A stretch of 64,000 nucleotides of DNA from a virus. Of this stretch, positions 8,093 to 62,411 are shown piece by piece (within the stretch, counting starts at the first letter, position 1; each line of letters opens with the position of its first letter). The notes under the pieces were generated by a model, which was given only the letters and a program-made list of their open reading frames with translations, was not told the DNA's origin and made no database searches. A program made the position numbers and the translations under genes. The stretch is from the UHGV virus genome UHGV-0086135; one strand, given 5' to 3'.

Positions 8093-11041
8093 TTAGAATT
8101 TAAAATAATTACTAATTTTGTGAGCAATTTTAGTGAAGAAGGGTGTTTTCAATTCTTTAATTTCTTCGCTCATTTCCTGAATGGCCTTAATTAAAAGAGC
8201 ATTCACAGCAGAGTTAGAAATTGTTAGAACATCAGATCCATCGACTTCAACTTTAGATACAGCTTCCGGTAATTCTTTTTCAAGATCCTGAGCAATAATA
8301 CCAACTTCATGTTTAATAACACTACGGTCTTTAATAGACTTAACTTTATCGTAAGTATAAACTTTCAGTCGGCAAACTTTTTCAACCGCTCCGTTTTCTA
8401 GCTCTTTTTTATTAATCTTAAGACGACCATCGGAACGAATATACACATCATTAAAACTTCCATTTCCTGGTGCATAAAAGAACCCATCATAGTGGAACTC
8501 GAATATCGCGTTAGGATGACCAGCATCAGGAGAAGCCTCCGCAGATCCAACACGAATAATTGCTTGTCCCCAATTATTAGGGATACGACGAATACCAAGA
8601 TCGACGGCAGTTACATACCCTTGATTGGTGACTACACTTCTTCCTTTAATAATTGGATAATAGCTATCTGATCCAACATAACCATGATCGACGAATATTG
8701 GCGCTTCTACTCGCCATTGGTTGCCCCAATCACCTGGTTGACTAGCGGTCCAACGTTCACCATGAACATATAATCGAACGTTATTAACATGAGCCATTTC
8801 GACGCCTTTTGGACTTAGCGTGATATCCCCTGCGTTTGTAATGTATACACCAGCATTAGTAGCATAACTATAGAACGCTAATCCATTATCATCACCACCC
8901 TTACCAATATACCAGTTACCAGTCCCGTCTACGTCACCACGAATATGCAAAGAATTACTAGCAGGTGCTGATAATACAATAGAATCACCTGGGCTTTGAA
9001 TTGTCAAGCGTCCGGTCATAATATCACCGCCTTTACCCACGCGAGTATTCAAAGCAGCGTCTAAATTGGTTGCATTATTATATTTCTTCCAGATAGAACC
9101 AGCAATATTACCATCGGTATTAAGGAATGCTGCTCCAGCATAAACTCGACTTTGTGACATGAATCGGCCCGACGGCAAGAAACGCCATGTAGCTAATTCA
9201 GTGGCTGTAGTTCCAGTAGCGGATAAATCACCCTGAGCAACGATACGATATTCTGAACTAGCAATATCCATGCCAGAAGCCATAGTAATATTTGTTACAG
9301 TGTTTTTCTGTTTAACAATTGGCGCAAACTGGTTTTTATTTGAATCGTCAATGGCCTGATATAATGGCGCAATGGTAGTATTCTGATTTGCGTAAGTATT
9401 AGAACCAGAACCGCTAGCAGGAGCTTGAATATATGCTCCTGGAGCAAGTGAAATTTTCTGATTAGCGCCAAGATTAACAGCAGCAGTGATATTCAGCAAT
9501 CCTCTAAAGTTTTGTTGAGCAGTCCAAGTATGTGATCCGTCTTCAAGAACAACACGACGAACTGTGCAAGTTCTATTTCCTGAATTACCGAATACACGAA
9601 CGACAAAATAACGGTAGTTTGTCTGGGATACAGTACCACGCCAAACCTGAACAGTACGGCCTGTGCTAGTATGTTCGCTAGGACCGACGGAAAACATAAC
9701 CAAGTTTCCATCAATCGTCCCCCAATTCATATTTGCTGGCATGTTCTTTATTTTGTTCAAAGGAACGCTAAACATACTACCAGGGACAAAATCAAAGGTT
9801 TGCCAATCTAACTCCGCTAATTGAGCTTTAATACCACCCATACCCAAAGTAATTGGCAGAGAATAAGATGTATATACTTCGTTCCATGTACCCCAAACAC
9901 CATTAGTGTATGCACGCTCAAAAATACGTCCGCGAGTAGTTGTACCTGTTCCGGCAGTAGTAAATTTTTGGAAAATAGCACCACCAGAAGCACGCTGTTT
10001 AACTTCTAGCAAACCAATAATAACGGCCGGTAAACCTTCACCTGTAGGGCAGTTAATAACGGCATCAGTGCCTAAAATATTATATAACCCAGGAGTTTTA
10101 AAATCATTCAGGTTTCCATCATAGAAAGTCGCTGGTGTGACATTACCGACTTGTTGCCACGGTCCCCATTTAGGAGCAGTAGCATCCCACGCGGCAGTAA
10201 GACAGCGAGTATAAACAACACCAAACATGGTTGTATATCTTTGCGTACGAGAATAGCTTCCCCCTTCATATACTTCCAAAAGACCTTTAGCTGACGACCC
10301 CTCTTCTGGGAAATTTCTGTCAAAGGTGGCAATGGAATTTGAACTATTCCTCCACAAGCCAAAGTGTTCAGCACCTCCTAGATCATTAAGATCAATTGTT
10401 GTTGACAGTGGACGAGTACCGGATTGAATATTTCGCCACACACTCCACGGACCATTTACTCCGTTCCATGTAGCAGTCAAGGAACGAATATAAACATTTC
10501 CGTATCTGGTTGTATATCTCTGAGTACCAGCAAATTGACCGGCCACAAATACTTCTAGCACACCTACAGCATTTTCTTCTGGAAATTTATTTGCTGGTTG
10601 AGCGTTGGTTGAAGTTGCTTTCGACCAAACTCCAAGATATTCTTCAACAGGCCCATACTCATCTAAATTAGCATCAACCGGTAATTCGCCGTTATTTTTT
10701 ATAAACGTTGTGCTATTGACATTTATGTCAGATGGAGTTAGCGTGATATCTTTTGACCCATCAAAGGATATACCATTAATTTTTCGTGCTGTTTTTAATT
10801 TCGTTGCAGTTGCAGCGTTACCTGTTAAATTTCCAATTATATTTCCATTAACAGTTAAAGAACCATCAATTGTTCCTCCATATTTTAAACCTAATTCTAT
10901 AACACTGCCTGAGTCATCTTTTGTGAAAATTGTTTTATCTTTTAAATTAATAGCCAATTCACCTTCGGCTAATACTGAAGCAGCAGGACGTTGACCTGCA
11001 GTTTTGCTTCTTTTAAATTGTATTTGTTTTAAAGTAGCCAT
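8093..11041 (-). CDS. 37: long tail fiber distal subunit gp37 (982 aa)
   Basis: N-terminus [13 protein letters not shown]...[17 protein letters not shown] matches recalled T4 gp37; C-terminal part diverged. Confidence 0.93.
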
Positions 11042-53885: not shown

Positions 53886-53910
53886 CTTTTTCTCCAAAGG
53901 GCCGAAGCCC

Positions 53911-55422
53911 TTATAAATTAACTGTTTTCATTACGTAATTAAATTTTTCATCTGCGTAGCGCTGAATACGATCAATGCCGTGTTTTAAAAGATAGTTCAA
54001 ATGAACGTATTTCTTTTTCGTATTAGCAGATTTTGGCTTAACACCGCAATCATCTATGAGGTCCCAGACTGTTGCGATTGTTTTAGAACCATGTTTACGT
54101 AATACGCGACCTATTGTTTGCAATACAATAATTTTAGATTTAACACCGTGTGCTAAAACAACATGATGCAGATTTTTAACTGAAATGCCAGTAGAAAATA
54201 CACCATAACTAGCTACTATAATTATTCCTTTACCGTTTTCAGCTAAGGTTTTCATTATATTGCGGGTTTCGGTATCAACTTCCCCTGATACGTAATAAAC
54301 TTTATCGTATTCATTTTTAATTAAATCAAAAATAGCTTTACCATGTGATACATGCTTAAACATGACAAAAGCGTTTTCATCTTTTTGCGCAAGCTTAATA
54401 GCTAATTTAGCGATCCATTTATTTCTTTTACTGAGTCCAGTAATAATTTTTATTTCTTCTTGGTAAGTTTTTCCCTTTAATTTAGTAGTGAACTCATCGG
54501 GATAGCGAAGAAAAATGCTATTAATTTTTAACTCAGTTACTTGTCCATCTTCCATTAATTTAGAGGTCGTTACTGGCTTAAATATTTCACCGAACATTCC
54601 AACATACTGCATGATATTGGCTTTGCCATCACGTAATGAACCAGACAAACCGAATTTGAACATACAGTTATTTAAACCTGATATGATAGATGAAATACTT
54701 TTTCCTGTAGCAAGATGACATTCATCATTCATCATCATTCCAAACTGTGAGAACCATTCTTTTGGCTGTTTTACTACAGTTTGCCATGTACCAACAACGA
54801 CAGGTGCATCATTTTTATATTTATCATCTTTTGATGCTCCACCGCCGATTTTCTTTATCATTGCATGACTGAATAAACGATAGTCAACAAAGTCATCAGC
54901 CATCTGAGTTGTCAGAGCAGTTGTTGGAACAATGATAAGAATTTTACCTTCATAATTTTCCAAATAATATCGAGCAAGCAAAGCTTGAATTAAAGATTTA
55001 CCTGCGGATGTTGGAAGATTAAGAATTCTACGACGATTAACTAATCCTTCGAACACTGCATCTTTTTGATACCAGTGCGGTTCAATTCTTTTATTTCCTG
55101 AATAGATTTCTAATTTAGAAAGCCATTCATCAAAATCTTTTCTTGATAATTCTTCTTTTTCATTAATTTGCGGGTCAATCCAGGCTTTATAGCCAAAGTT
55201 ATCACAGAACTTTTTAATTTGCCCGACTAAGCCGAATGGAAGAAGACGATTATAATCTAAAAGACGGATTCGTCCATCCCAGTGACCATATTTGTACTTC
55301 GGATTAAAACGATACCCATCAGCTTCAAAGCTAAAGAAATCACGGAGTTCATGAAATGTACTTTCTTCACAATCAATTCTCACGTGACTAAAATCATAAA
55401 AATGTACTTTAATGTCAGTCAT
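53911..55422 (-). CDS. uvsW: DNA/RNA helicase UvsW (503 aa)
   Basis: ORF track; SF2 helicase motifs (GSLRDGK Walker A-like, DECH box in MMNDECHLATGK); late promoter upstream. Confidence 0.95.
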   Translation of the reverse strand: MTDIKVHFYDFSHVRIDCEESTFHELRDFFSFEADGYRFNPKYKYGHWDGRIRLLDYNRLLPFGLVGQIKKFCDNFGYKAWIDPQINEKEELSRKDFDEWLSKLEIYSGNKRIEPHWYQKDAVFEGLVNRRRILNLPTSAGKSLIQALLARYYLENYEGKILIIVPTTALTTQMADDFVDYRLFSHAMIKKIGGGASKDDKYKNDAPVVVGTWQTVVKQPKEWFSQFGMMMNDECHLATGKSISSIISGLNNCMFKFGLSGSLRDGKANIMQYVGMFGEIFKPVTTSKLMEDGQVTELKINSIFLRYPDEFTTKLKGKTYQEEIKIITGLSKRNKWIAKLAIKLAQKDENAFVMFKHVSHGKAIFDLIKNEYDKVYYVSGEVDTETRNIMKTLAENGKGIIIVASYGVFSTGISVKNLHHVVLAHGVKSKIIVLQTIGRVLRKHGSKTIATVWDLIDDCGVKPKSANTKKKYVHLNYLLKHGIDRIQRYADEKFNYVMKTVNL

Positions 55423-55451
55423 GTCTAAATACCATGTAATAAATATATCTA

Positions 55452-55459
55452 TATTTATA
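55452..55459 (-). promoter_or_regulatory. late promoter TATAAATA upstream of uvsW
   Basis: Exact motif on minus strand about 30 nt upstream of the uvsW ATG. Confidence 0.55.
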
Positions 55460-55472
55460 CTGAGGAAATATT

Positions 55473-56153
55473 ATGATAGATAAAGATTATATTGCAGAGC
55501 TGAAGGCTCTTGATGATAATAAAGAAGCTAAAGCTAAATTAGCTGAATATGCTGAACAGTTTGGTATAAAGGTCAAAAAGAATAAATCTTTTGATAATAT
55601 CGTTAATGATATTGAAGAAGCTCTCCAGAAGCTCGCTAGTGAACCTATGCCAGAGACTGATGGGTTATCTATTAAAGACTTAATTGATGCTGCTGATGCC
55701 GCAGACGGATTAAAATATGACGATGAAGAAGTCAATCCAGAGGCAGCACTTCTGATTGATTCTCCGGTTAAATCTGACATTAAAATTGAAGTAGTAGAAA
55801 TGGATAAAATTCCTGAAAATACCGATGTTTTGATTGAAGATACTCCTTTTGTTGAAGAAAAATTCGAGCAGGCTGTAGCTGAGATTATTGAATCTGAAAA
55901 GCCGTCTGTATTTACTCTTCCGGAAAACTTTAGTCCGAATCTTCAGCTGATTGGAAAAAATCCAGGATTCTGCACTGTTCCTTGGTGGATTTACCAGTGG
56001 ATTGCTGAAACCCCAGATTGGAAATCTCACCCAACTAGTTTTGAACACGCGTCGGCACACCAAACTTTGTTTAGCTTAATTTATTACATTAATCGTGACG
56101 GATCAGTTCTAATTCGTGAAACACGCAATTCTTCTTTCGTAACATTAAAATAA
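55473..56153 (+). CDS. inh: Inh-like protein (226 aa), call is position-based
   Basis: ORF track; acidic N-terminal half; sits between uvsW and hoc where T4 carries inh; sequence itself not recognised. Confidence 0.5.
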   Translation: MIDKDYIAELKALDDNKEAKAKLAEYAEQFGIKVKKNKSFDNIVNDIEEALQKLASEPMPETDGLSIKDLIDAADAADGLKYDDEEVNPEAALLIDSPVKSDIKIEVVEMDKIPENTDVLIEDTPFVEEKFEQAVAEIIESEKPSVFTLPENFSPNLQLIGKNPGFCTVPWWIYQWIAETPDWKSHPTSFEHASAHQTLFSLIYYINRDGSVLIRETRNSSFVTLK

Positions 56154-56162
56154 GGAACACCT

Positions 56163-57860
56163 ATGGCTTATAGTGTATCTATTGCTCCTTTGGCTGCTTC
56201 GGCAGTCATTGGAGCAACAACCAATTTTACTGCAACAACTTCTGGTGCCGCAGCTGAAGGCACAGAAACGTTTGTATGGACAGTAAACGGCGTAAAACAA
56301 TCTTCTGTCACCGCAGCTATGAATTATGTTGCTGCAGGACCTGCAGGTAGTAAGACTGTTAAAGTAGTTGCTACTGTTACCCCAGCAGATGGTGAGGCAG
56401 AAACTGCTGAGGCAGAAACCACTCTGACCGTTCAGAATAAAACTATGCCTGCGATTACTTTAACCTTGAGCCCGGCTTCTGTTTCTAAGGAAATTGGTCA
56501 ATCTCAAGTAGTCACAGCTGATGTTACTGGCGCACCGTCAGAAGCAAGCATTTCTTATGTTTGGAAACGTGACTCTTCTGTTATTTCCGGTCAAACTGAT
56601 AAAACAATTACCTTAACTGAATCAACGGAAACCAGCTACACATTGAATTGTGAAGTAACGGTTTCTGCTCCAGACTATAATAATGGAACTGCAACTAAAG
56701 GCATTGCTGTTGCTTTTATCAAAAAGACCATGAGCGGTGTTTCAGTTACTTTGAGCCCGACTTCTGTTTCCAAAGAGATTGGGCAGTCTCAGGTAGTTAC
56801 AGCTAACGTTGTTGGTGCTCCAGAAGGTGCAAGTATCGCTTATGTCTGGAAACGTGATACTGCCGTTATTGAAGGTCAGACTGCTAAAACAATTACCATA
56901 ACTGAAACTACAGAAGCTAATTACACATTGAATTGTGAAGTTACAGTTTCTGCATCAAATTACAACCCGGCTACTGCGACTAACGGTATTGAGGTTGTTT
57001 TTACTAAAAAGACTATGGGAGCCGTTTCTGTTACTCTGACGCCTAGTTCAATTACCGCTGAAAAAGGAGCAGAAGCATCTTTTAAAGCCGATGTTACTGG
57101 AGCGCCGGCAGGAGCATCTGTAGCTTATTCATGGACCAAAGACGGGTCTCCTGTTGATGGCTCAACAAATACCCTAGAAGTTGATACATCTACTATCGGG
57201 TCACAGGTAATTGAGGTTTCGGCTGTTGTTTCTGCCCCAGATTATAAGCCGGTTACAGTTACTAAAACCGGTAATGTAACTATTACCAAAAAGACTATGA
57301 GCGGAGTTTCAGTTACTCTGACTCCTGAGTCTATTACGACTGAACAGGGTTCTGAGGCATCTTTTAAAGCCAACGTTATCGGTGCTCCGGGAGGTGCAAC
57401 TGGGGTTTATTCTTGGACCAAAGATGGTTCTCCTGTAGAAGGTTCTACTAGCACTTTAGCGATTGACACGTCTGATATAGGGTCCCAAGTGATTGGCGTT
57501 TCTGTTATTGTATCTGCTGCAGATTATAACCCTGTAACCGTTACCAAAACTGGTAATGTAACAGTCACGGCTAAAGTAGCTCCTGCTCCTAAAGGTGAAT
57601 TGCCTTATGTTCATCCTCTTCCACATCGTACTTCAGCTTATATCTGGTGCGGTTGGTGGGTTATGGATGAAATCCAAAAAATGACCGAAGAAGGTAAAGA
57701 TTGGAAAACTGAAGATCCAGACAGTAAATACTACCTGCATCGTTACACTCTTCAGAAGATGATGAAAGACTATCCAGAAGTTGATGTTCAAGAATCACGC
57801 AATGGATACATCATTCATAAAACTGCTTTAGAAACTGGTATCATCTATACCTATCCATAA
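56163..57860 (+). CDS. hoc: head outer capsid decoration protein Hoc, expanded (565 aa)
   Basis: ORF track; five tandem ~94-aa Ig-like repeats plus a distinct C-terminal domain; position between inh and rnlB. Confidence 0.85.
   Translation: MAYSVSIAPLAASAVIGATTNFTATTSGAAAEGTETFVWTVNGVKQSSVTAAMNYVAAGPAGSKTVKVVATVTPADGEAETAEAETTLTVQNKTMPAITLTLSPASVSKEIGQSQVVTADVTGAPSEASISYVWKRDSSVISGQTDKTITLTESTETSYTLNCEVTVSAPDYNNGTATKGIAVAFIKKTMSGVSVTLSPTSVSKEIGQSQVVTANVVGAPEGASIAYVWKRDTAVIEGQTAKTITITETTEANYTLNCEVTVSASNYNPATATNGIEVVFTKKTMGAVSVTLTPSSITAEKGAEASFKADVTGAPAGASVAYSWTKDGSPVDGSTNTLEVDTSTIGSQVIEVSAVVSAPDYKPVTVTKTGNVTITKKTMSGVSVTLTPESITTEQGSEASFKANVIGAPGGATGVYSWTKDGSPVEGSTSTLAIDTSDIGSQVIGVSVIVSAADYNPVTVTKTGNVTVTAKVAPAPKGELPYVHPLPHRTSAYIWCGWWVMDEIQKMTEEGKDWKTEDPDSKYYLHRYTLQKMMKDYPEVDVQESRNGYIIHKTALETGIIYTYP
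56445..57572 (+). repeat. hoc: four tandem ~282-bp in-frame repeats within hoc (Ig-like domain modules 2-5)
   Basis: Protein repeats begin at residues 95, 190, 285 and 379, each opening KKTM(S/G)(A/G)VSVTL(S/T)P; modules 2/3 and 4/5 are each other's closest copies. Confidence 0.75.
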
Positions 57861-57872
57861 TCATAATCATAA

Positions 57873-57898
57873 GGGGCTTCGGCCCCTTTCTTCATTTT
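57873..57898 (+). terminator. rho-independent terminator after hoc
   Basis: GGGGC-TTCG-GCCCC followed by TTTCTTCATTTT. Confidence 0.65.
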
Positions 57899-58444: not shown

Positions 58445-59449
58445 ATGTTTAAAAAGTATAGCAGTCTTGAAAATCATTACAATTCTAAATTCATTGAAAA
58501 ACTTTATAGTTTAGGATTGACTGGTGGCGAATGGGTAGCTCGTGAAAAGATTCATGGCACAAATTTCTCATTAATTATTGAGCGTGATAAAGTAACTTGT
58601 GCTAAACGCACTGGTCCTATTCTTCCTGCTGAAGATTTCTTTGGGTATGAAATTATTTTGAAGAATTACGCTGATTCCATTAAAGCAGTACAAGATATTA
58701 TGGAAACTTCAGCGGTTGTATCTTATCAAGTCTTCGGTGAATTTGCCGGACCTGGCATTCAGAAGAATGTCGATTATGGCGATAAAGATTTTTATGTATT
58801 TGACATTATTGTTACTACAGAAAGTGGTGATGTGACTTATGTCGATGATTATATGATGGAATCATTCTGTAATACATTTAAATTTAAAATGGCTCCACTT
58901 TTAGGTCGCGGTAAATTTGAAGAGCTGATTAAATTGCCAAATGATTTAGATTCTGTCGTCCAAGATTATAATTTTACAGTAGACCATGCTGGATTAGTTG
59001 ATGCGAATAAATGCGTTTGGAATGCTGAAGTAAAAGGCGAAGTATTTACCGCTGAAGGATATGTATTGAAACCTTGTTATCCTTCTTGGATGCCTAATGG
59101 CAATCGCGTAGCTATCAAATGCAAGAACTCTAAATTTAGTGAAAAGAAAAAGTCTGATAAGCCTATTAAAGCTAAAGTTGAACTGTCAGAAGCTGATAAC
59201 AAATTGGTTGGAATTTTAGCTTGTTACGTTACACTGAACCGAGTAAATAACGTTATTTCTAAAATTGGCGAAATCGGTCCAAAAGATTTTGGAAAGGTGA
59301 TGGGACTAACGGTTCAAGATATTTTGGAAGAAACTTCTCGTGAAGGTATTACTCTAACTCAAGCGGATAATCCTTCTTTGATTAAGAAGGAATTAGTTAA
59401 AATGGTACAAGATGTACTTCGTCCGGCTTGGATTGAATTGGTAAGTTAA
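58445..59449 (+). CDS. rnlB: RNA ligase 2 (334 aa)
   Basis: Sequence [43 protein letters not shown]... matches recalled T4 Rnl2; ligase motif KIHGTN. Confidence 0.95.
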
Positions 59450-59456
59450 ATAAAAA

Positions 59457-59480
59457 GGGACCTTTCGGTCCCTTTGTTTT
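59457..59480. terminator. bidirectional terminator between rnlB (+) and gene 24 (-)
   Basis: GGGACC-TTTC-GGTCCC with A-run upstream and T-run downstream. Confidence 0.65.
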
Positions 59481-60762
59481 ATTCATCAATGATAATTTTT
59501 GGTAACTTAACACCTAATAAAACAGACAAATCTGAACGACCCGCCATTTTATCCATGTCTCCACCATCAATTACTCTTGCTTCTTTTTCATCTTTTGCTA
59601 CAGTGTAAGGATTTGCAGATAAAGCATATCTAACTAATAAACCGATAGATGGCTGCAAACTTTCTGGATCAACTACAACTTTAAATGCACCTACATGTTC
59701 AGGGTCATCTAAGTCAAGACCTTCTGTATACGGAGCATAGAAAATTGATCCAACAATTTCTTTTTCACCAATATTTTCTACTACGCCAACGATTACATAA
59801 TCTAATGGACTGTTGGTATCGCAATAAAGCGGTAAACCATTAGCTAAGAACCCATAGGCATTTTGTGAAAGATATTTGTCATCTTCTGGTTTATGTTTTA
59901 ACCAACCTGATGCAGCAAGAATCGCAGCGGCACGAGCTGAAGCAACACAGAACGTTGCTGTGTAAGTTGATTCTTTCTGGATATGTGAAACCATTTCACA
60001 TACCATTCGGTATAATGAACGACCAGCTTCAGGTGCAGATGCATAACTCAAATCAATGAATCCAGTATCAGTAATTCCTGTAACTTTATAGCGTTTTGAT
60101 ACTGTAATCAAAGACTGTAGAATATCTTTATTGATTTCATCCGCCATTTCAGTTGCAAGCAAATCTTCCAAGAAATTAGGAGCATCGAATCCATTTGCTT
60201 CTAAATCTTGTGCTAATTCGACTGTGATGCCAGTTTTAAGTTTACGAGATTTAACTGCGGTTTGCCATTTATTAATCTGGAATCTAGCATCCGCAATTTC
60301 GCTATCAGAGCTTTCAAATTTGCTTGTTACTGCAGCATCAGAAAATAGACGAACCTTTAAAAGAACAATTGCAATCTGAAGAGCTAATTCTAAATCACTT
60401 TCTTCAATATCAGCAAATGGTGTATCTTCTAATACTTTATAAACGATATTATTATATTTGAATAAATCGCCTTTATTGAGAGTTAATTTAGACTCTTCTG
60501 TTAATTCTGTGATTTGTTCTCGGTCTACATACCCAGCTTCGCCGGCGTAAGTAGCACCAGTTTTAAATGTAAATTCGTTATCCGGGTTAAGGTATTTGAT
60601 ACCATAAAAAGCAGCAACAGGTTGATTAGTTCTTTGCGTTGCTACAATGTCAGAATATATTAATTTAGTGGTAGCGCGAGTCAAAGCAACGAGATTTGGG
60701 CGACCGATTGAGTTGCTATTCGTTGTGGTTGATTCGCGCAGAAGTTCGTTGATTTTAGCCAT
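59479..60762 (-). CDS. 24: head vertex protein gp24 (427 aa)
   Basis: ORF track; same length as T4 gp24; similarity to gp23 fold region; late promoter upstream. Confidence 0.95.
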   Translation of the reverse strand: MAKINELLRESTTTNSNSIGRPNLVALTRATTKLIYSDIVATQRTNQPVAAFYGIKYLNPDNEFTFKTGATYAGEAGYVDREQITELTEESKLTLNKGDLFKYNNIVYKVLEDTPFADIEESDLELALQIAIVLLKVRLFSDAAVTSKFESSDSEIADARFQINKWQTAVKSRKLKTGITVELAQDLEANGFDAPNFLEDLLATEMADEINKDILQSLITVSKRYKVTGITDTGFIDLSYASAPEAGRSLYRMVCEMVSHIQKESTYTATFCVASARAAAILAASGWLKHKPEDDKYLSQNAYGFLANGLPLYCDTNSPLDYVIVGVVENIGEKEIVGSIFYAPYTEGLDLDDPEHVGAFKVVVDPESLQPSIGLLVRYALSANPYTVAKDEKEARVIDGGDMDKMAGRSDLSVLLGVKLPKIIIDE

Positions 60763-60789
60763 TGCGCTTTCCTTTTGGTTTATATGATT

Positions 60790-60797
60790 TATTTATA
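60790..60797 (-). promoter_or_regulatory. late promoter TATAAATA upstream of gene 24
   Basis: Exact motif on minus strand between the gene 23 terminator and gene 24 start. Confidence 0.65.
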
Positions 60798-60799
60798 CC

Positions 60800-60830
60800 A
60801 TAAAAACAACTAAAGGGACCCGAAGGTCCC
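60800..60830 (-). terminator. terminator after gene 23 (minus strand)
   Basis: Minus-strand RNA hairpin GGGACC-UUCG-GGUCCC followed by a U-rich tract. Confidence 0.65.
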
Positions 60831-60845
60831 TTAAATCGTCAAAGA

Positions 60846-62411
60846 TTAGATACCTTTAACATATACACGGCGGAAGTAAGCGTTTTTACCAAGGCTATTC
60901 AGAATAGAAGGCATACCGCTCTGGATGCGAGAAGCCGGAGCCTGAGCAGCGGATTCTGCAAATGGGTTGATACCGATACCGTAACGAGTTTTGAATCCCA
61001 TTACCGGTTGGAAGTTCTTCGGATCGGAACCACGCAGCGGAGTCAGAGCTACATATGGAGCATAGTAAATACCAGCATCCATTTCGTTCGGACCTTTATA
61101 ACCTACAGTGAAATAATCCTGTTTAGCATACTGGTCGATATATACACGGTATTTACCACCCAGAACACCAGCAAATACTGACTTGGTAGTATCAGTGTTA
61201 AAGCCAGTAGCCAGACCCTGTGCAGCATAAGAAATGCCAGTATCAACTGAAGCCAGAACGTTAACTACGTTACGAGAAGCGATAATGAAGTTACCTTCAC
61301 CACGACCGGTCTGACGAGCAATTTCAACTGCTTCTTTGTCAATCTGGAACAACAGAGCTTTAAAGGATTCACCCGCCCAGCGAGCACCGCGAATATCAAT
61401 CGGATCCTGGAAGTCAAATACACCAGCTTTAGAACCCGGAGTCAGGGTCATACCAGATTTACCAACCTGAGCTGAGTAGTTAATCCAATCAACAACTTCA
61501 CGGTTGATTTCCAGCATAATTTCGGTAGCCAGAATACCAGACAGTTCAGCATCAGCATCCATACCGTGAACAGCGCGGAGGTCTTGTGCTAATTCGATAG
61601 AGTAAGCAGCTTTCAGCTGACGAGATTTAGCTTCGATAACTTGTTTATCGATACGGAAGCCCATTTCATTCCATGGGTTATCGGTAGAACCGTTGAAACC
61701 TTCCTGAAGTTCAGCGATAGAAGTAGCCATACCTTCAGCGATTTCTACCAGTGCACCAGCTTCCATTTGTTTCTTAATTTCAGCATCTAATTTAGCTGCA
61801 TCATCAGCACTTGAACTAATTGTTACTACAGAGGAAGCTTGCAGATATACAGTACCAGTTTCCTGGAAGAAATAAGTATAGATGTCACCTTTGACAGTAG
61901 TAGCGCCAGCAGTTAAAGCAGTGAATTTCTTAGCAGCACCCTGACCAGAGAACATTGCATCTGGACCATACATTGGGTGGAATGCTTCTTTAGCATCAGC
62001 AGCGATTGGGTCTTTACCATATACTGCACGCAGTGCGAATACCTGGCCAGTCGGGCTATTCATCGGCTGAACACCGCAAATATCGAAAGCAATCAGGTTA
62101 GGAATAGCACGACGTACCATACCCATAACAGCTGGGCCAATCTGAGTTACTGCGCCAGAAGTCTGACCTGCAGCGATGTTAGTAGCGTTGTAACCGTGGT
62201 CACCACCGATTTCAGCTTCTGTTAAGAAAGAACCAAATGCCTGGGCGATTTTTTCGTCTTTGTACTCTGGAGCTGTCTGGAAATCTTTTTCCTGGTTTTC
62301 AAAGATTTTAGCGATAATCGCTTGTTTGCTATTAGCAATTTCCGGTAAACCTTCACCTTCCAGTAATGGCTTCCATTTGTTCAAAAGTTCAGCTTTAGTT
62401 TTGATAGTCAT
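60846..62411 (-). CDS. 23: major capsid protein gp23 (521 aa)
   Basis: Sequence MTIKTKAELLNKWKPLLEGEGLPEIANSKQAIIAKIFENQEKDFQ... matches recalled T4 gp23 precursor. Confidence 0.97.
   Translation of the reverse strand: MTIKTKAELLNKWKPLLEGEGLPEIANSKQAIIAKIFENQEKDFQTAPEYKDEKIAQAFGSFLTEAEIGGDHGYNATNIAAGQTSGAVTQIGPAVMGMVRRAIPNLIAFDICGVQPMNSPTGQVFALRAVYGKDPIAADAKEAFHPMYGPDAMFSGQGAAKKFTALTAGATTVKGDIYTYFFQETGTVYLQASSVVTISSSADDAAKLDAEIKKQMEAGALVEIAEGMATSIAELQEGFNGSTDNPWNEMGFRIDKQVIEAKSRQLKAAYSIELAQDLRAVHGMDADAELSGILATEIMLEINREVVDWINYSAQVGKSGMTLTPGSKAGVFDFQDPIDIRGARWAGESFKALLFQIDKEAVEIARQTGRGEGNFIIASRNVVNVLASVDTGISYAAQGLATGFNTDTTKSVFAGVLGGKYRVYIDQYAKQDYFTVGYKGPNEMDAGIYYAPYVALTPLRGSDPKNFQPVMGFKTRYGIGINPFAESAAQAPASRIQSGMPSILNSLGKNAYFRRVYVKGI

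Follow-up and report, generated by a model that had tools for sequence, protein, structure and literature searches.

A five-module Ig-like array of apparent Jiaodavirus type in the hoc gene of a Tequatrovirus phage

Hoc serves as the T4 vaccine display platform and is a proposed mediator of phage adherence to mucus. The T4 protein (376 aa; PDB 5vf3 and 8t1x; model in PMC10385173) carries three Ig-like modules strung on a C-terminal anchor, and Hoc proteins differ in how many Ig-like domains they have, from 1 to 10 (PMC10385173). T4-type Hoc variants bind mucin or MUC2 (PMC10385173, PMC11853027), and both the binding of mucin glycans by Ig-like domains (fucose on MUC2) and retention in mucus have been described for such variants (PMC11853027, PMC9271167). 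In addition, retention of phage PMBT63 on mucin-coated plates was increased, in an assay that lacked a hoc-minus control (PMC13435897). Our literature search on Hoc domain duplication and recombination found no paper on module gain or loss.

We analyzed a stretch of 64,000 nucleotides of the viral genome UHGV-0086135 (hereafter, the window). An ORF with an ATG start at 56163..57860 on the + strand encodes a 565 amino acid protein (565 codons plus stop), and was assigned to hoc from the ORF list, its match to T4 Hoc, and its position between inh and 24.3; the window's ORF list holds no second ORF of at least 60 aa overlapping it. The upstream neighbor, separated by 9 nt, is inh (inhibitor of prohead protease; 55473..56153, + strand; ORF list and T4 annotation), which is of the Tequatrovirus type and 97-100% identical to that of phage HP3. 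The gene order uvsW(-), inh, hoc, 24.3, 24.2, rnlB, gp24(-) is that of the T4 annotation, placing hoc between inh and 24.3/24.2/rnlB beside the head genes 24, 23, 22, and 21, and it also agrees with the annotations of phages SG1, HP3, Clarke_MM3, and Mineola. A terminator scan and direct reading revealed a GC-rich hairpin resembling a terminator, AAGGGGCTTCGGCCCCTT, with a T-rich run behind it (57871..57898, + strand), starting 11 nt past the hoc stop codon; phage Mineola has a terminator annotated at the equivalent place. The T4 late promoter motif TATAAATA had no + strand match near inh/hoc, the nearest match being on the - strand at 55452-55459, and the window shows no enrichment for it (12 observed vs. 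8.4 expected). Sigma-70-like matches around inh/hoc were at chance level.

A sequence search of the PDB matched the 565 aa protein to T4 Hoc (5vf3, 8t1x; E = 4.4e-135), and phmmer against the same database aligned residues 291-565 with T4 Hoc 100-376 (E = 3e-108). The capsid-binding domain at the C-terminus (aa 470-565, 96 aa; 57570..57857, + strand), assigned to the Tequatrovirus type by its identity to T4 and HP3, is homologous to T4 Hoc 281-376 (96% identical; 98% to HP3) and includes the aromatic/Trp interface residues. Its WCGWW motif is conserved, with W495, W498, and W499 corresponding to T4 W306, W309, and W310 and invariant in a 20-sequence alignment. Taking into account the PDB match, this near-identical domain, the T4 synteny, the Pfam Ig families, and the AlphaFold2 (AF2) and Foldseek results described below, we identify 56163..57860 as hoc, carried by a phage of the T4 genus, Tequatrovirus. 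Its product should form a monomeric capsid fiber whose Tequatrovirus-type C-terminal domain docks at the gp23 hexamer center, and the anchor's 96% identity to T4 suggests one monomer per hexamer center on the mature capsid.

The N-terminal part of the protein is a string of five tandem Ig-like beta-sandwich modules of 91, 95, 95, 94, and 94 aa, in the order A-B1-B2-C1-C2 (all on the + strand). Module 1 (type A; aa 1-91, 56163..56435), the distal Ig-like domain, is all-beta in the AF2 model (block pLDDT 80-92); it shares 49% identity with T4 Hoc domain 1 and 95-99% with the first module of Jiaodavirus-type Hocs. Module 2 (type B1; aa 92-186, 56436..56720) is the first copy of a 285-nt tandem pair and has orthologs in other phages that are 86-100% identical; scanned alone, it gave weak Ig_2/Ig_3/PKD matches. 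Module 3 (type B2; aa 187-281, 56721..57005) is 71% identical to module 2 in amino acids and 74% in nucleotides, and is the rarer module, which most relatives either lack or have merged with B1. Module 4 (type C1; aa 282-375, 57006..57287) has I-set and Ig_3 matches and orthologs that are 88-99% identical, while module 5 (type C2; aa 376-469, 57288..57569) is 76% identical to it in amino acids and is chimeric, its final ~55 nt being of the T4 type. At the DNA level there are thus two tandem pairs of 285 and 282 nt, 56436-56720/56721-57005 (74% nt) and 57001-57280/57283-57562 (76% nt), the first of which was called by Tandem Repeats Finder (period 285, score 672). B-type and C-type modules are 38-45% identical to each other, and module 1 is 24-29% identical to the rest.

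Scanned as a whole, the protein passed the Pfam cut-offs for Ig_3 (39.9 bits, cut-off 30), I-set (39.0, 23.7), and Ig_2 (28.9, 27); single modules scanned separately each fell under the gathering cut-offs. AF2 predicted five all-beta modules (mean pLDDT 85.4; 10-residue block means mostly 85-95, range 80-95) and a C-terminal domain of low confidence (pLDDT 48-72), probably owing to the 20-sequence alignment. Foldseek with this model matched multi-Ig proteins (DSCAM, Sidekick, and ICAM-1; E down to ~1e-14). Against the PDB, whole-model TM-scores were low (0.15-0.32), as expected because a five-domain rod is flexible, but tandem Ig-like folds were confirmed; the RB49 Hoc crystal structure was not singled out in this search. 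A preliminary description of this DNA had called the gene a Hoc homolog with five Ig-like modules, of which modules 2/3 and 4/5 are mutual closest copies, and each of these points is borne out by the comparisons above. Five modules would give a fiber roughly 1.5 times the 180 Å of T4, i.e., ~270 Å.

Tandem repeats are well known to cause misassembly, and the extra modules could in principle be an assembly artifact of a repetitive gene. We regard this as almost certainly wrong: with ~25% of bases differing between the copies, each read has a unique placement; 5 public contigs (JGI, ENA) encode the identical protein; 565 aa proteins that are 97-98% identical are encoded by a Shigella sonnei assembly and by independent contigs of 165-166 kb; and the reading frame is intact, with modules that are predicted to fold.

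Compared with T4 Hoc, the window's protein shares the inh-hoc-24.3 locus, the capsid-binding domain with its WCGWW aromatic cluster, the common plan of an Ig-like domain string on a C-terminal anchor, and an identical stretch of ~18 residues at the end of the final Ig module. It differs in module number and in the Ig modules themselves, which are just 35-64% identical to those of T4 and go undetected by megablast. The long Hocs known elsewhere, such as that of Serratia phage Muldoon (1174 aa, 10 Ig-like domains; PMC10385173), likewise combine a conserved anchor with a variable module number, but they belong to phages of other genera and their Ig arrays are unrelated in sequence. The array is matched in Jiaodavirus-type Klebsiella phages, whose Hocs (PMBT63 and KP185, 468 aa; Mineola, 374 aa; Lion_ER11, 280 aa; Clarke_MM3, 566 aa) have the module types A, B1, B2, C1, and C2 with 84-99% amino acid identity; Clarke_MM3 and P0004 have five modules in the window's order. 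These Hocs differ from the window's in the type of their C-terminal domain (identity 78-82%, dS 2.0 or saturated), in flanking genes that are 45-70% identical, and, in most members, in having 3 or 4 modules. The closest GenBank genome is that of Salmonella phage SG1 (Tequatrovirus sgallinarium; Hoc of 470 aa), which shares with the window the Tequatrovirus backbone (96% over 8 kb), the Jiaodavirus-type array, the T4-type 3' junction, and an APAPKG linker, but lacks one module.

Sliding identity, junction alignments, and blastn segment boundaries delimit an exchanged Ig-array cassette at ~56150..57510 (+ strand). Against HP3, the cassette is ~50-60% identical (across 56148-57587) and the flanks 97-100%; against L006 (a five-module relative on a Jiaodavirus-type backbone) or Clarke_MM3, the cassette is 83-99% identical and the flanks 45-70%. 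Consistently, dS between the window and the Jiaodavirus type ranges from 1.5 to saturated for the flanking inh, rnlB, and uvsW, and reaches 2.0 for the C-terminal domain. The 5' junction (~56145-56157) covers the stop codon of inh and the ribosome-binding region of hoc, and the 3' junction (~57495-57515) falls inside module 5; in the base-level junction alignment, the sequence from ~57515 onward is that of T4, unlike the Jiaodavirus type. The five-module array was found on a Tequatrovirus backbone in L005/P0002 and on a Jiaodavirus-type backbone in L006/P0004 and Clarke_MM3. By these comparisons, the array is of the Jiaodavirus type, set into a Tequatrovirus backbone, and does not represent an expanded T4-type Hoc. 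Homologous recombination would have exchanged the cassette between the genera at a pair of conserved edges, one where inh stops and hoc starts and the other where the last Ig module ends, making the locus a clean case of domain-level mosaicism in which the exposed array is swapped between genera and the anchor is kept with its own capsid.

The direction of transfer appears to have been into Tequatrovirus, where the array is rare, in contrast to its wide occurrence among Klebsiella phages. With megablast, 43 GenBank phage records cover 80% or more of the array, and the 40 records listed are from Klebsiella, Raoultella, or Enterobacter phages except for two of SG1, which is the sole Tequatrovirus in that list; in hundreds of records from Escherichia and Shigella phages, the megablast match is confined to part of hoc. 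Moreover, array diversity is greater on Jiaodavirus backbones, and nearly all window-type alleles on the Tequatrovirus backbone have the very same T4-type 3' junction, suggesting that the array entered only once. These observations make quite unlikely the opposite direction, with the window's form being native and the array passing to Jiaodavirus from a Tequatrovirus-like or third, low-GC lineage. GC3 offers that alternative some support: it is 0.26-0.28 in the array, 0.22-0.26 in the Tequatrovirus flanks, and 0.28-0.39 in the Jiaodavirus-type flanks, so that on Jiaodavirus-type backbones the array lies below most of its neighbors and nearer to Tequatrovirus values. Being intermediate, however, the array's GC3 does not decide the direction. 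Overall GC content was also considered as a sign of foreign origin and rejected: the Ig region has 43% GC against 33-37% in the flanks, yet the arrays of T4 and HP3 themselves have 41%, so the excess reflects a composition rich in Ala, Gly, Thr, and Val; the region's GC3 of 0.27 is not discriminating either.

The preliminary description had attributed the five modules to two recent duplications, i.e., to the growth of a T4-like three-module Hoc by tandem duplication in its own lineage. Modules 2/3 and 4/5 are indeed adjacent as well as mutual best matches, SG1 is one module shorter, and independent duplication is known in T4-type alleles (modules 2 and 3 of HP3 both group with T4 module 2). 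The divergence of the copies, however, makes this origin very improbable. Synonymous divergence within each pair is near saturation (modules 2/3, dS 1.04, dN 0.19; modules 4/5, dS 1.14, dN 0.14), with third-codon-position identity of 50-54%, whereas orthologous modules have dS of 0.03-0.14 against the 565 aa sibling L005 and 0.24-0.44 against L006. Paralog divergence is therefore not below ortholog divergence, as a recent tandem duplication would have it. In a neighbor-joining tree the modules cluster by type across phages and not by phage, and all four modules 2-5 have their own ortholog in other phages (84-100% identical); the array is not T4-type to begin with, modules 1-4 being just 35-64% identical to those of T4. 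The grouping by type together with the contrast in dS indicates that both splits are older than the divergence of the window's array from those of the Klebsiella phages. We interpret B1/B2 and C1/C2 as old paralog pairs under purifying selection. Because the protein is Ig-like and variable, a target of a diversity-generating retroelement was also considered; the ORFs flanking hoc are standard T4 genes and the differences between paralogous modules fall mainly at third codon positions, a pattern that looks unlike retroelement-driven mutagenesis.

Alternatively, two hoc alleles that had diverged beforehand could have undergone an unequal crossover and so yielded a diverged tandem in one step, which would explain the similar, saturated dS of both pairs. 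Cross-genus recombination in hoc is demonstrated, and candidate parents exist in the form of single-C alleles, both pure C2 (~30 clusters) and pure C1 (1-2 clusters). For the B pair the expected counterpart is missing: we classified 137 related sequences (the best 120 of 810 matches plus cluster members), and among these there was no pure-B2 single-B allele, every single module containing B2 starting as B1. We thus consider this origin unlikely and retain the old paralog pairs as the preferred reading.

In the same census, five modules were present in 14 of the 137 sequences (13 distinct, as the window's protein was counted twice), a separate B2 module in 18, and the GenBank phage set used contains one five-module Hoc, that of Klebsiella phage Clarke_MM3. 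The anchor was matched in 129 of the 137 representative clusters, where the N-terminal length corresponds to ~0-15 modules. As to whether 565 aa is an unusual length among close relatives, as the preliminary description implied, this holds overall but not within the small Tequatrovirus sub-lineage with this allele, where 6 of 13 distinct sequences have it. The window's Hoc is an uncommon member of a known, variable family, and not a new system or mechanism.

The shorter relatives carry traces of module loss. Their single B modules are B1-to-B2 hybrids, in SG1, P0006, KMI11 (P0012), and others, with at least five different switch points. Apart from a handful of scattered cases, B1 sequence comes before B2 sequence, which is the order predicted for in-register deletion; these hybrids also uphold the earlier suggestion that the repeats recombine. 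The difference between SG1 and the window amounts to exactly one module, the switch lying near nt 30-40 of the SG1 B module, as expected from a 285-nt in-register deletion, and the lone B of SG1 is on this account a deletion product. Unequal in-register crossovers between paralogous modules would have removed modules repeatedly, giving four-module relatives (SG1, 470 aa), a three-module relative (376 aa), and, on the Jiaodavirus backbone, two-module relatives (280 aa). The longest exact identity between present paralogs is 20 nt for modules 2/3 and 15 nt for modules 4/5, so recombination between today's copies should be inefficient, and the hybrids may stem from an earlier period of greater similarity between the copies. 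Forms that are purely A-B1-C1-C2 could have existed before B2 was gained and would then not be deletion products. Since the five-module array occurs on both backbones and the hybrids of shorter relatives follow the deletion order, the five-module form is probably ancestral in this sub-lineage. Overall, we consider it likely that the locus is a Tequatrovirus hoc with old paralog pairs, a cassette shared with Jiaodavirus, and later module losses.

By analogy with the T4-type variants, the protein would be a non-essential surface fiber with weak adhesion to mucin glycans or cell surfaces. The Hoc of PMBT63 carries a four-module version of the window's array. The binding residues reported for other Hocs sit in modules that are not orthologous to the window's. 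More tentatively, it is possible that the Hoc Ig array is a mobile, length-adjustable display cassette that crosses genus and host boundaries while the anchors stay with their backbones, fiber length being reset by in-register module loss. The host span of the cassette, so read, extends from Klebsiella phages to phages of Escherichia, Shigella, and Salmonella. If the same array serves phages of different hosts, the ligand probably belongs to the habitat that these phages share (gut mucus, for instance) and not to the host cell. Natural alleles of two to five modules on nearly identical backbones offer material for examining the influence of fiber length and module type on adhesion, immunogenicity, and gut persistence. 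One backbone provides a near-isogenic natural series of 565 aa (window), 470 aa (SG1, P0007), and 376 aa (P0091), which would permit a direct test of module number against adherence.

Our analysis identified the ORF at 56163..57860 (+ strand) as hoc, with an ATG start, 565 codons and, in an ORF listing, no overlapping ORF of at least 60 amino acids. The gene order around it is the same as in T4: uvsW (53911-55422, - strand), inh (55473-56153, + strand) directly upstream of hoc, two small ORFs between hoc and rnlB (58445-59449), and gp24 (59479-60762, - strand) followed by gp23, gp22 and gp21. The inh-hoc gap of 9 nt suggests that these two genes are co-transcribed, and a terminator-like hairpin (57871-57888), followed by a T-rich run, starts 11 nt past the hoc stop codon. 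The T4 late-promoter consensus (TATAAATA) was found at 55452-55459 (- strand) between uvsW and inh, directed at uvsW; none was found on the + strand ahead of inh and hoc. The locus (53900-55470, 60760-60850) lacks homing-endonuclease genes, whereas T4 carries segD and segE here, and on the sibling contig L005 an ORF for a NUMOD3 endonuclease separates uvsW from uvsW.1, and a SegE-like one separates gene 24 from gene 23 (2060-2752, 9655-10356). The exact Hoc protein of the window is present on 5 public contigs (≤168.6 kb), entered as a hypothetical protein.

As the preliminary description had stated, this Hoc is longer than that of T4 (565 vs 376 aa) and consists of five Ig-like modules and a C-terminal domain. 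The top PDB sequence match was T4 Hoc (5vf3, 8t1x and others; E 4.4e-135), whose C-terminal domain is near-identical, including the WCGWW cluster that belongs to the aromatic capsid interface of T4 Hoc (PMC10385173). Pfam detected Ig_3, I-set and Ig_2 above cut-offs in the whole protein, and individual modules all scored under cut-offs. The structure predicted by AlphaFold2 from an alignment of 20 sequences (mean pLDDT 85.4) contained five all-beta modules (means over 10-residue blocks between 80 and 95, mostly 85-95) and an alpha/beta C-terminal domain of lower confidence (pLDDT 48-72). Foldseek matched the model in the PDB to tandem Ig or beta-sandwich proteins (DSCAM, Sidekick, ICAM-1 D1-D5, cadherins; E 1e-13 to 1e-18), with the low TM-scores expected of a flexible rod.

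A repeat finder returned two tandem pairs, 56436-56720/56721-57005 (285 nt, 74% identical; Tandem Repeats Finder period 285, score 672) and 57001-57280/57283-57562 (280 nt, 76% identical). Setting borders at the repeated [N/K]KTM linkers, we delimited modules M1 (aa 1-91), M2 (92-186), M3 (187-281), M4 (282-375) and M5 (376-469), followed by a 96-aa C-terminal domain (470-565), the capsid anchor. M2/M3 and M4/M5 are indeed mutual closest copies (71% and 76% aa identity, vs 38-45% between the pairs), and M1 shares 24-29% with the other modules. Three Gly-to-acidic changes (APSGAS to APSEAS, KRG to KRD, GQTGKT to GQTDKT) distinguish M2, whose branch in the module tree is long, from its counterparts in nearly all relatives, and M3 has KRG to KRD at the equivalent position; the homolog P0001 shares all four. 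These could reflect either parallel substitution or gene conversion within exposed loops.

The proposal that both pairs arose by two recent duplications is not supported by their divergence. Within the window, dS (Nei-Gojobori) is 1.04 for M2/M3 (dN 0.19) and 1.14 for M4/M5 (dN 0.14), with third-codon-position identities of 54% and 50%, and when 53 modules of 13 Hocs were compared by neighbour joining, they clustered by type (A, B1, B2, C1 and C2, corresponding to M1-M5) across phages, not by phage. The low dN/dS (~0.12-0.18) indicates that selection keeps both copies in each pair.

The array itself has been exchanged between genera. Over the 8 kb surrounding hoc, many Tequatrovirus genomes (HP3, Sf21, pSs-1 and others) share 98-99% identity with the window, in matches spanning only ~83% of the query, the gap being the hoc Ig region; the sole match across the whole 8 kb was Salmonella phage SG1 (Tequatrovirus sgallinarium; 96%). 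When only hoc was searched, SG1 was followed among the full-length matches by Klebsiella, Raoultella and Enterobacter phages (82-88% nt), among them Mineola, classified as Jiaodavirus. In sliding comparisons, identity to HP3 was 93-100% in inh, ~50-60% where alignable at 56148-57587 and 98-100% from 57588. Against L006, a 167-kb ENA contig with Jiaodavirus-type neighbours and a 563-aa Hoc, it was 53-80% in inh, 83-99% over most of the array, 68-80% in the C-terminal domain and 31-53% further downstream. Base-level alignment placed the 5' junction at ~56145-56157, spanning the inh stop codon and the hoc ribosome-binding region, and the 3' junction at ~57495-57515, within M5, downstream of which the window and T4 show no differences over ~70 nt. 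Against L006, dS is 0.24-0.44 in the five modules, 2.0 in the C-terminal domain, 1.5 in inh, 1.8 in rnlB and saturated in uvsW, so the array was swapped long after the two genera diverged, each backbone retaining its own anchor. On the same scale, the paralog pairs are several-fold older than this transfer, and they long predate the separation from L005, whose 565-aa Hoc differs by dS 0.03-0.14. High GC of hoc was ruled out as a sign of exchange, T4 hoc itself having 41% GC; array GC3 (0.27) is intermediate between both backbones. At the end of the last module (57515-57583) the window has the same nucleotide sequence as T4 and is clearly unlike HP3, which places a further mosaic boundary inside hoc between T4 and HP3. 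The linker at aa 474-479 (57584-57601) is a small polymorphic patch exactly at the Ig/anchor border, reading APAPKG in the window, SG1, P0001 and P0091 and APEPEG in T4, HP3 and the 565-aa siblings (P0002, P0003, L005).

A search of 5.8 billion proteins (E ≤1e-10) returned 810 homologs, the best 120 of which fall in ~94-aa steps (373-376, 467-472 and 563-565 aa); further lengths among GenBank phages are 280 aa (Lion_ER11) and 566 aa (Clarke_MM3, already annotated as Hoc-like). Typed at diagnostic positions (16 for B1 vs B2, 12 for C1 vs C2), five-module Hocs are A-B1-B2-C1-C2 without exception, four-module Hocs mostly A-B1-C1-C2 and three-module Hocs mostly A-B1-C2. Several single B modules (for example in SG1, P0006, KMI11 (P0012), P0082 and P0091) are B1 at the start and B2 at the end, the switch falling at five or more different points; a few isolated diagnostic positions aside, no hybrid among the classified modules showed the opposite order. 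The order observed is the one predicted when an in-register deletion joins a B1 to the B2 next to it, whereas duplication would give a middle copy in the reverse order. SG1 has exactly one 285-nt unit fewer than the window, switching at ~nt 30-40 of the module. Assigning backbones by C-terminal domain type, we counted 6, 6 and 1 distinct sequences with five, four and three modules on Tequatrovirus backbones; the corresponding numbers of sequences on Jiaodavirus-type backbones were 5, 79 and 31. Nearly all Tequatrovirus-borne alleles have the T4-type 3' junction in common, suggesting that the array entered only once; taken with the hybrid order, this makes five modules probably ancestral in this Tequatrovirus sub-lineage, with shorter alleles derived. 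The array described beforehand as recombination-prone was so historically, as the hybrids attest, but not necessarily today: the longest exact identities are 20 nt (M2/M3) and 15 nt (M4/M5), so further homologous deletion is expected to be infrequent. In the T4-type Hoc of HP3 (L003 3164-4582; 472 aa), the T4 domain-2 type occurs twice, as modules 2 and 3, each of which clusters with T4 module 2, so the T4-type allele changes module number independently too.

By analogy with T4, one Hoc monomer would dock through its C-terminal domain at each gp23 hexamer centre, with the Ig string pointing outward (PMC10385173). The three-Ig fibre of T4 measures 180 Å (PMC10385173); at ~45 Å per domain, five Ig modules would give a fibre of ~270 Å. 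Judging from homologs, it may stick weakly and reversibly to mucin glycans or cell surfaces (PMC11853027, PMC9271167). PMBT63, with a four-module version of the same array, showed better retention on mucin-coated plates, in an assay without a hoc-minus control (PMC13435897).

Fokine and colleagues described 650 Hoc homologs of the same plan with 1 to 10 Ig-like domains, up to the 1174-aa Hoc of Muldoon, the number being highly variable even in close T4 relatives (PMC10385173). Scanning 1.84 billion representative proteins with the 96-aa anchor yielded 137 clusters, 129 of which gave rough module numbers (N-terminal length over an assumed 94 aa per module) of ~0 to 15, most often 2, and ~5 in three clusters. 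Five modules therefore lie inside the known range. In the literature, we found no description of named module types with their deletion series or of a cross-genus array swap with the anchor kept; these refine what is known of phage mosaicism and do not amount to a new type of system. In Enterobacter phage PG7 (KJ101592 / NC_023561), hoc is annotated as split into two Hoc-like coding sequences. A second protein of PG7 is reported to have an N-terminal capsid anchor joined to a GDSL lipase domain (PMC10385173), and the anchor also lies away from the C-terminus in 3 of the 129 sized clusters.
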